DNA from: a virus
Lineage: Duplodnaviria > Heunggongvirae > Uroviricota > Caudoviricetes
Strand: one strand, 5' to 3'
IMG/VR virus record: IMGVR_UViG_3300019376_000001
Length of the DNA: 64,000 nucleotides
The stretch's first letter is position 1. Each line of letters opens with the position of its first letter. Positions 744-873 of the stretch are shown here, piece by piece. The position numbers and the translations under genes were made by a program. The notes under the pieces were generated by a model, which was not told the origin of the DNA, ran no database searches, and saw nothing but the letters and a program-made list of their open reading frames with translations.

Positions 744-873
744 AAGACCGCTTTTTCGATTTAACGGCGCTCTCCCAGCTGAGCTATCCCCCTATGTTGG
801 CAGGGGGAGAAGGGCTCGAACCTCCGACTTCCGGCTTGGCAGGCAATCATTTGAAAATTGCAGTAACGGTCTT
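744..873 (-). ncRNA. Circularly permuted tRNA (anticodon GCC) inside a terminal stem; YrlA/Y-RNA-like topology
   Basis: The 3' half (nt 30-76, 844-798, ending TCCCCCT G CCA) precedes a 4-nt linker ACAT and the 5' half (nt 1-29, 793-765, AGGGGGA TA GCTC AGCTGGGA GAGC G CCG). Rejoining gives a 76-nt cloverleaf with anticodon arm CCGGC CTGCCAA GCCGG. Flanked by AAGACCG/CGGTCTT. Confidence 0.85.

Follow-up and report, generated by a model that had tools for sequence, protein, structure and literature searches.

A circularly permuted tRNA in a phage genome as a probable Y-RNA-type RNA with a predicted Ro60-like partner

Why would a phage encode every part of a transfer RNA (tRNA) in a single small locus and put the parts in the wrong order? 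The question is raised by positions 744-873 of a 64,000-nucleotide stretch of DNA from a Caudoviricetes phage (record IMGVR_UViG_3300019376_000001), hereafter the window. The record is a 192-kb phage genome, 98% complete, and the window is the minus strand of its nucleotides 74393-138392 (G000 in the coordinates below). The RNA is read on the minus strand of the window, the strand of the phage's 37 tRNA genes. Our analysis suggests, with a probability of roughly 0.7, that the locus encodes a tRNA-derived, non-decoding small RNA of the Y-RNA (YrlA) type, which docks through a handle on a Ro60-like protein of the DUF2828/DUF7788 families and presents its tRNA body from there.

The order of the parts is the one proposed in a first-pass annotation of the sequence. 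On the minus strand, tRNA positions 30-76, including GCCA, are followed by a 4-nt linker and by positions 1-29. When the pieces are rejoined as 1-29 and 30-76, ARAGORN calls a tRNA-Gly(gcc) of 76 nt with all stems paired; the native locus is called by neither ARAGORN nor the Rfam tRNA model. The two halves complement each other exactly, with no position absent or doubled. Positions 30-31 are GC, the loop 32-38 is CUGCCAA and positions 39-43 are GCCGG; the variable region AAGUC lies between GCCGG and the T arm, and UA stands between the acceptor 5' strand AGGGGGA and the D arm. The A1-U72 pair and G73 are present as annotated. Both pairings noted earlier in the flanks are there too: TGATT/AATCG belongs to an interrupted helix of greater length, UUUUC-AAA-GAUU with AAUCGAAAA (the middle helix), and AAGACCG/CGGTCTT is part of a 9-bp stem (the handle stem). 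A single A separates the handle 5' strand AAGACCGUU from the motif CUGCAA, and UUA lies between CCG and the middle helix 3' strand. The secondary structure is thus a rod, in which the handle stem is followed by the CWGCAA bulge and then the middle helix, with the tRNA body as its cap. The locus is true DNA and not an assembly artefact, a doubt raised in the annotation: a DNA contig from a different sample covers 709-1600 with zero differences, identical over the whole span, and about 12 DNA runs contain 69-100% of the 31-mers sampled from the locus. The architecture is beyond chance, since it recurs with compensatory changes in nine orthologs.

These nine orthologs lie on other contigs and were found through neighbouring proteins and two DNA patterns; with the 744-873 RNA they make ten. 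Six belong to lineage A, in which the tRNA is broken between positions 29 and 30 (the 744-873 RNA, L079, L084, L034, L106 and L134), and four to a second lineage with the break between 31 and 32 (L015/L059, L018, L164 and L180). In a test on four orthologs, 92% of the cells were paired and 11 pairs were changed on both sides, which none of 500 shuffles equalled; slid controls were 43-55% paired. Over the ten orthologs the handle stem shows up to four pair types per position, the T stem up to three (G-U/U-A; A-U/G-C/U-A) and the acceptor stem three to four at most positions. The T loop and D arm are unchanged throughout, and the handle closes the RNA in every ortholog. The middle helix had no support in the MAFFT register of A1 (the four-ortholog covariation). 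It is formed from differing sequences, for instance UUUUC..GAUU with AAUCGAAAA, UUAAAAAUUU with AGAUUUUUAA, UGGAAA with UUUUCA, and GUUAUGUU with AAUAUAAC.

Comparison of the 744-873 RNA with its sister in L034 (L034:3053-3091) provided a view of how the body evolves. The flanks are ~97% identical, and at least 14 differences fall in one 39-nt block that spans the T stem to the acceptor 5' strand (window 794-825 compared). Because the differences are almost confined to this mosaic block, the sequences suggest that the acceptor module was exchanged as a unit. A BLAST search of the phage collection found no relatives of the locus, its matches being tRNA-tRNA junctions of 78-80% identity, and no related locus was found by a search with the neighbouring radical-SAM protein. 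Contig L013 stops before the position of the RNA, and the islands of L014 and L019 are short and lack it.

Two points went beyond the first-pass annotation: the flank stem and CUGCAA form a handle common to about 14 RNAs, and the phage encodes a protein with a predicted Ro60-like fold. The handle RNAs, found by a scan for the flank stem, are 65-174 nt long, have paired ends and lie in the tRNA island at G000 136.6-153 kb. Each starts with (U)AAAGRC-N3-4, carries C(A/U)GCAA 1-3 nt later and ends in N3-4-GYCUUG, and the inner variable part of the handle stem covaries among the copies. Twelve of the 20 plus-strand matches to AWGRC-N4-9-CWGCAA are within 13 kb of the island, where shuffles expect 1.8 matches genome-wide. 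The cargo on the handle is variable. It can be absent, a lone T arm, a tRNA body in natural order or a permuted T-acceptor-D body, the last being found in three handle RNAs (744-873, G000 145397-145519 and G000 146412-146529). A common binding partner is likely, because about 14 RNAs share one handle and yet carry widely differing cargo.

Two further RNAs of the island have related shapes. At G000 147187-147305, on the plus strand (L012:11188-11306), the parts of a tRNA-shaped RNA stand in natural order; it has an acceptor stem of 7 bp, a T arm and ACCA, and ~65 nt containing CUGCAA take the place of its anticodon arm. This is the opposite circular permutation to that of the 744-873 RNA. A weaker permuted tRNA-like piece at G000 148534-148669 (L012:12535-12670) has a T arm, a degenerate D arm, an acceptor hairpin of 6 out of 7 bp with a loop of UCCA plus 14 nt, no clear handle and a YrlA score of 12.3 bits.

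The candidate partner is encoded at the end of the island. The gene (G000 153088-154626; 512 aa) lies on the same strand as the RNA and matches DUF2828 and DUF7788. An AlphaFold model built on an alignment of 92 diverse relatives has a predicted local distance difference test score (pLDDT) of 92.8 and a predicted template modelling (TM) score (pTM) of 0.92. Among structures in the PDB, the 13 that match this model best are Ro60/TROVE proteins without exception; they align from end to end with TM scores of 0.47-0.59 and include a TROVE domain (9KOP), Xenopus Ro (1YVR), Thermus phage phiLo Ro60 (9L5Y) and D. radiodurans Rsr (2NVO). Below this group there are only vWA domains. A phmmer search of the protein against PDB sequences gave no match, and the similarity surfaced in the fold search alone. 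According to the model, then, the phage encodes a Ro60-shaped protein. The arrangement of the two genes is shared: in two complete related phages (190 and 194 kb), an ortholog of the RNA lies on the same strand as a copy of the Ro60-like gene and 22-25 kb upstream of it; the two gene copies have 73% and 88% identity. DUF2828/DUF7788 relatives are numerous, with more than 6,400 clusters at 50% identity.

Among characterized RNAs, the YrlA family offers the closest comparison. The YrlA model RF02553 aligns with the RNA end to end (positions 1-114) with a score of 30.6 bits and an E value of 8.8e-6 for the genome, and a second full-length match of 29.8 bits lies 9 kb off in the same genome. The kinship with YrlA proposed in the annotation is thus borne out by alignment, and a tRNA-to-Y-RNA relationship is the best supported of the explanations that it had offered. 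As in YrlA, the order is T arm, closed acceptor stem and D arm, the RNA ends on the anticodon side, the end stem has a short conserved motif in its 5' strand, and a Ro60-type gene is on the same strand (Chen et al., 2014; PMC4201824). The YrlA of M. smegmatis also shares a 7-bp acceptor stem and CCA, and RNase P cleavage has been shown for it. There are differences as well. The bulge motif of the phage RNA is C(A/U)GCAA, whereas YrlA has GNCGAAN0-1G near its 5' end, the proposed contact of Rsr (PMC4201824). YrlA lies close to an ortholog of Ro60 with a TROVE domain, and the partner in the phage is a more distant DUF2828/DUF7788 gene that Pfam TROVE does not see. CCA is genome-encoded in the phage RNA and not added, as it is in M. 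smegmatis YrlA. Known YrlA RNAs are in addition bound by Ro60/Rsr and bear tRNA-type modifications (pseudouridine 55 and dihydrouridine). Furthermore, the phage genome has about 14 handle RNAs, and a 7-nt equivalent of the anticodon loop is kept at the junction.

A YrlA-bearing locus in another phage is also of interest. In IMGVR_UViG_3300032257_000004, a GC-rich 91-kb phage, an open reading frame (ORF) starting at about L009:858 on the minus strand opens like Ro60/Rsr (TROVE) by eye (L009:1-1650). Upstream of it are a YrlA match of 39.9 bits and several repeated modules beginning GGACUGAAG. An exact-pattern search showed that its acceptor/D module, UCCCCCU-GCCA-AUGA-AGGGGGA-UA-GCUCAGCUGG, is almost identical to that of the 744-873 RNA; this likeness may reflect shared tRNA ancestry rather than transfer.

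Ro60-type particles provide a framework for a mechanism. Ro60 binds the end stem of Y RNAs mainly via a short motif in the 5' strand, and the distal module tethers or gates other factors (PMC4201824). The stem-bulge-stem handle of the phage RNA, consisting of the 9-bp stem AAGACCGUU/AGCGGUCUU, the 5' bulge CUGCAA and the interrupted 9-bp middle helix, would be the docking site of the ring protein and grip it as in Ro60-Y RNA particles. The far end displays a near-complete tRNA body, with a T arm, a loop-closed 7-bp acceptor stem, a D arm and a nicked 5-bp anticodon stem with its 7-nt loop. This mimic may recruit or occupy a tRNA-binding factor of the host or the phage, such as a processing or repair enzyme, a nuclease or PNPase, and the particle could serve RNA repair, RNA quality control or counter-defence. 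In the subclade that carries GCCA, RNase P probably cuts the acceptor loop, which would leave a two-piece RNA with a free CCA end.

Other phage systems are consistent with such a particle. In Thermus phage phiLo, a phage Ro60 binds phage Y-like RNAs that consist of a 5'-3' stem, a CGAA bulge and a second stem, and it captures host PNPase and slows it (PMC12135203). The two systems have in common a phage Ro60-type ring protein with phage partner RNAs of stem-bulge-stem form and a proposed capture of a host RNA enzyme. In phiLo, however, the protein is a recognizable TROVE protein, the RNAs carry CGAA and binding has been shown, whereas the present pairing is predicted from sequence and a structure model; the term tRNA-like is absent from that study for Yrl1 and Yrl2 (PMC12135203). 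Bas63 gp130 is a Ro60-like protein encoded beside tRNA genes that counters the Ppl defence, and its authors proposed that some annotated tRNA genes are Y RNAs (PMC11482910). Its likeness to our locus, a Ro60-shaped phage protein beside a tRNA cluster, is one of fold and gene position, and no RNA was identified or characterized in that work. Among the RNA-repair systems of phages, Iyer et al. listed TROVE proteins that have a tRNA-like partner (PMC7824862).

A key point of the first-pass annotation was the anticodon arm. In the six lineage-A orthologs the 14-mer GC-CUGCCAA-GCCGG and the 3' G-CCG are invariant, whereas the handle, the middle helix and the acceptor stem and loop all vary. The middle helix directly abuts G30 in this lineage, except in L134, where it ends 3 nt before G30. 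In the resulting three-way junction, the 2-bp hairpin can stack on CGG/CCG, and together they make a 5-bp anticodon stem that is nicked and ends in a canonical 7-nt loop. In the four orthologs of the second lineage, G39-C40 find their partners on the 3' strand (CCCGC, CCUGC, UCAGC), the loop stays open, its seven residues lining one side of an internal loop, A replaces U33 and position 34 is variable. Pair 29-41, which adjoins the nick in lineage A, is mismatched in all four of these orthologs (C-A, U-C, U-C and A-C in L015:1047-1172, L018:655-777, L164:2052-2175 and L180:8556-8685, in that order). The 3' part of the loop is CCAA in nine of the ten orthologs and GCAA in one, and the anticodons are GCC, ACC or AGC. 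Therefore, the geometry of the arm and the 3' part of its loop are kept and a functional anticodon loop is not. We also considered the hairpin as the equivalent of the 'V' arm of YrlA and rejected this, as it lies outside the CGG/CCG stem and not between that stem and the T arm. The 3' half of the RNA derives from a tRNA-Gly, because the pattern CCAAGCNGG..GUCG..GGUUCGAGCCC also matches ordinary tRNA-Gly genes and tRNA-Gly halves at attachment (att) sites.

The acceptor loop varies more widely. GCCA follows the acceptor stem only in the 744-873 RNA, L079 and L084 among the ten orthologs, with the linkers ACAU and CUUUAU; without GCCA, six orthologs have closed loops of 5-6 nt and L180 has a loop of 12 nt. 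In a second group of paralogs, made up of G000 146412-146529 with its L015 and L039 orthologs, all three members carry GCCA, with compensatory changes in the acceptor stem. U at position -1, before acceptor nucleotide 1, is found in all six GCCA-bearing RNAs and in one of eight without GCCA. Determinants of bacterial RNase P are a 7-bp acceptor stem on a T arm, RCCA and U(-1). RNase P cleaves M. smegmatis YrlA, which has a 7-bp acceptor stem, both in vitro and in vivo, and the RNA then carries CCA (PMC4201824). Based on these determinants and this precedent, RNase P probably opens the GCCA subclass into two pieces, here of ~76 and 50 nt. A tRNA-Trp mimic, for which A1-U72, G73 and CCA in the loop were considered, was rejected, as the acceptor ends differ in the orthologs.

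A stable RNA from the locus is weakly hinted at by a metatranscriptome. A 153-nt contig from bovine gut covers 706-851 at a depth of 45 and carries the compensatory change of A7-U66 to U7-A66 seen in L079; the neighbouring gene region 861-1523 has no cover in the same run, although uncovered parts of such runs are not evidence.

Several observations weigh against our interpretation of the locus. The data from RNA libraries are contigs that are silent on ends and strand and may include DNA, and a consensus scan called no clear sigma-70 promoter or intrinsic terminator for the RNA. The YrlA score is less than half the gathering score of 69 for RF02553, and a regular expression search found the YrlA motif in none of the 14 handle RNAs. 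The Ro60-like gene is 15 kb away (15.4 kb downstream), compared with within ~4 kb for YrlA, and there is no match to Pfam TROVE (PF05731) in the phage genome; of the two genes that the annotation had suggested looking for, rtcB is missing (see below) and Ro60 is represented in fold and not in sequence family. The 2-bp mini hairpin is thermodynamically weak, is absent from the RNAfold prediction and, being invariant, supplies no covariation. The folding z-score of the whole RNA is just -1.15 and its minimum-energy structure disrupts the tRNA arms, although single-sequence folding is uninformative here. Finally, a two-piece form cannot be general, as seven of the ten orthologs have no GCCA.

Of the alternatives, the one that survives best is a free-standing decoy. 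Large phage tRNA arrays offset tRNA-cleaving defences, and the body could likewise soak up a host tRNA-targeting nuclease or a synthetase, with the handle serving stability or processing and no role for the Ro60-like protein. The single-stranded CCAA kept beside the anticodon stem in nearly all orthologs and the fast turnover of the acceptor stem and loop, evident in the 39-nt block, are consistent with such a function. However, the most widely shared part of the family is the handle, which is found on about 14 RNAs of diverse cargo, and in three complete genomes this family shows synteny with the Ro60-like gene. The loop is variable in its anticodon and has lost U33 in four orthologs. We therefore consider a decoy unlikely.

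A second alternative would concern only the GCCA-bearing members, namely the 744-873 RNA, its two close orthologs and the second paralog group. In this scenario they are two-piece tRNAs, opened by RNase P and trimmed at the 3' side, with the CCA end free and the pieces held by a handle docked on the Ro60-like ring, and they are charged or handled as tRNAs. The handler would be a synthetase, EF-Tu, a CCA-adding or repair enzyme or a defence nuclease. We regard this as rather improbable. If true, a permuted or split tRNA would be on record for the first time in a bacteriophage, and Ro60 particles would be physically linked to aminoacylation or tRNA-repair machinery.

A working tRNA is more doubtful still. 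Here the acceptor loop would be opened by RNase P and 3' trimming, and the molecule, as two pieces kept together by the handle or ligated at 29/30, would be aminoacylated and would decode GGY or donate its amino acid. All 76 positions, the canonical CU-GCC-AA loop, the 7-bp acceptor stem and the encoded G73-CCA speak for it, as do the invariant anticodon hairpin of lineage A, the presence of GCCA in three subclade members despite their differing linkers and the U(-1) in all of them. However, profile searches of the phage genome found neither RtcB nor a CCA-adding enzyme (PolyA_pol), and the phage already carries a tRNA-Gly(GCC) and two tRNA-Gly(UCC) genes. Bacterial Gly identity elements are U73, G1-C72 and C2-G71, which A1-U72 and G73 do not match. 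Most orthologs lack CCA, six have closed 5-6-nt acceptor loops, and four combine A33 with a mismatch at 29-41. The identical handle occurs on RNAs without any tRNA part, and a handle branching off the anticodon stem would be expected to clash with decoding on the ribosome. Of the proposal in the first-pass annotation of a two-piece or RtcB-ligated tRNA, an RNA opened in the acceptor loop remains plausible for the GCCA subclade; a decoding or RtcB-ligated tRNA is not supported. We regard a working tRNA as highly improbable. In the same genome, RNA_ligase (PF09414) gives one sub-threshold match of 18.7 bits in a 492-aa ORF (G000 162885-163253; L049), which could be an RNA ligase or a DNA ligase.

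Two kinds of known permuted RNA can be compared with the phage RNA. The permuted tRNA genes of Cyanidioschyzon merolae, other algae and some archaea also have a 3' half, a short spacer and a 5' half that rejoin into a cloverleaf. Unlike the phage RNA, they mature through a bulge-helix-bulge, a splicing endonuclease and a circular intermediate into decoding tRNAs. By inspection, the phage junction has no bulge-helix-bulge (3-4-3); it is a three-way junction, with a middle helix and a handle of 9 bp each. The ends of the RNA are paired in this long conserved handle, and orthologs have lost CCA and U33. In the two-piece transfer-messenger RNA (tmRNA) of alpha-proteobacteria and cyanobacteria (permuted ssrA), a permuted tRNA-like domain also occurs in bacteria; the CCA-ended acceptor piece is encoded upstream and removal of an intervening loop leaves two base-paired pieces. 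The phage RNA has neither a tag reading frame nor pseudoknots, and ARAGORN called no tmRNA in the window or the genome.

Finally, a functionless, decaying relic left by a pair of tandem tRNA genes, or by half a tRNA at an att site beside another tRNA, is scarcely credible, even though tandem tRNAs score on the YrlA model (26.5 bits for a Met-Met junction), BLAST matches tRNA-tRNA junctions and the 3'-half pattern fits real tRNA-Gly genes and att-site halves, because every helix is kept in ten orthologs by compensatory change, the halves are exactly complementary and the handle closes every copy.

Table 1. Coordinates of the parts of the RNA and of features discussed with it (window coordinates unless G000 is given; RNA index i is 874 minus the window coordinate).
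Feature	Position	Strand	Remarks
Whole RNA, handle-closed circularly permuted tRNA-like, 130 nt	744..873	-	G000 137520-137649 on + strand
Handle stem 5' strand AAGACCGUU	865..873	-	Partner 744-752; 3 pairs changed on both sides among 4 orthologs; AAGRC/GYCUU in ~14 paralogs
Family motif CUGCAA (C[A/U]GCAA), 5'-strand bulge between handle stem and middle helix	858..863	-	Motif count in tRNA island
Middle helix 5' strand UUUUC-AAA-UGAUU	845..857	-	Partner 753-761; in 10/10 orthologs, sequences differing
Anticodon-like mini hairpin GC-CUGCCAA-GC, tRNA positions 30-40	834..844	-	Invariant in 6 lineage-A orthologs
CGG, positions 41-43, top of anticodon stem	831..833	-	Pairs with CCG at 765-767
T arm GGAGG-UUCGAGC-CCUUC	809..825	-	2 compensatory pairs; aligns to T arm of YrlA and tRNA
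Acceptor 3' strand UCCCCCU, positions 66-72	802..808	-	Both-side changes in 6/7 pairs
Acceptor loop G73-CCA and linker ACAU, U at -1	794..801	-	GCCA in 3/10 orthologs, 3/3 of a paralog group
Acceptor 5' strand AGGGGGA, positions 1-7	787..793	-	A7-U66 to U7-A66 in L079 and RNA-library contig
D arm GCUC-AGCUGGGA-GAGC	769..784	-	Invariant in 10 orthologs
G26 and CCG (positions 27-29)	765..768	-	Rejoined cloverleaf; orthologs
Middle helix 3' strand AAUCGAAAA	753..761	-	Pairs with 845-857
Handle stem 3' strand AGCGGUCUU	744..752	-	Followed by G and U6
Handle RNA without tRNA part, 65 nt	348-412	-	
Handle RNA, 117 nt, cargo a CCA-less tRNA-Gly(UCC)-like gene in natural order	1637-1753	-	ARAGORN call at 1649-1721
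Handle RNA with CCA-less tRNA-Asn-like body in natural order	G000 141277-141392		
cREC_REC gene (PF20274, predicted cyclic-phosphate-processing receiver domain)	1050..1403	-	176 nt upstream of RNA

The protein genes around the RNA are listed here as context. The cREC domain encoded just upstream belongs to a group predicted to process 2',3'-cyclic phosphates (Iyer et al., PMC7824862). cREC genes also adjoin the RNA orthologs in L034 and L015; for the 744-873 RNA the gene is context only. Its closest homologs (95% identity, 154 contigs; L024-L033) are in another phage context with no handle RNAs nearby. Among the tRNA and handle-RNA genes of the island there are also a PD-(D/E)XK endonuclease (PDDEXK_5; G000 148093-148536, L012:12094-12537) and an AAA/nSTAND3 ATPase (L012:7419-8531), and both genes recur in the islands of related phages (L015, L017, L020 and L022).

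Our analysis places the locus within a known kind of RNA. YrlA-type tRNA mimics of phages, encoded beside Ro60, were described by Chen et al. (2014; PMC4201824), and the present RNA is a variant with another handle motif, a partner that is not TROVE by sequence, an array of about 14 RNAs, a retained anticodon arm and a genome-encoded GCCA. What is new is the anticodon-arm mimic in two strand topologies, the ancestry in tRNA-Gly and the link between GCCA and U(-1). In Rfam 15 and in the literature that could be searched, no RNA partner of DUF2828/DUF7788 proteins has been described. We know of no established role for the tRNA-like module of YrlA, even in bacteria.

The finding bears on phage genomes and on Ro60 biology alike. 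Automated tRNA callers miss genes of this type, and any tally of 'extra tRNAs' in a large phage calls for caution. For Ro60 and its Y RNAs, long a puzzle, the phage locus offers a compact test system, with one protein of predicted Ro60 shape and about 14 RNAs that share a common handle. The cargo on this handle forms a graded series: at one end there is none, a T arm alone comes between, and at the other end stands a whole tRNA in one or the other circular permutation. The 744-873 RNA, which keeps every part of a tRNA, is a natural probe of which tRNA features such a particle would present, and to whom.

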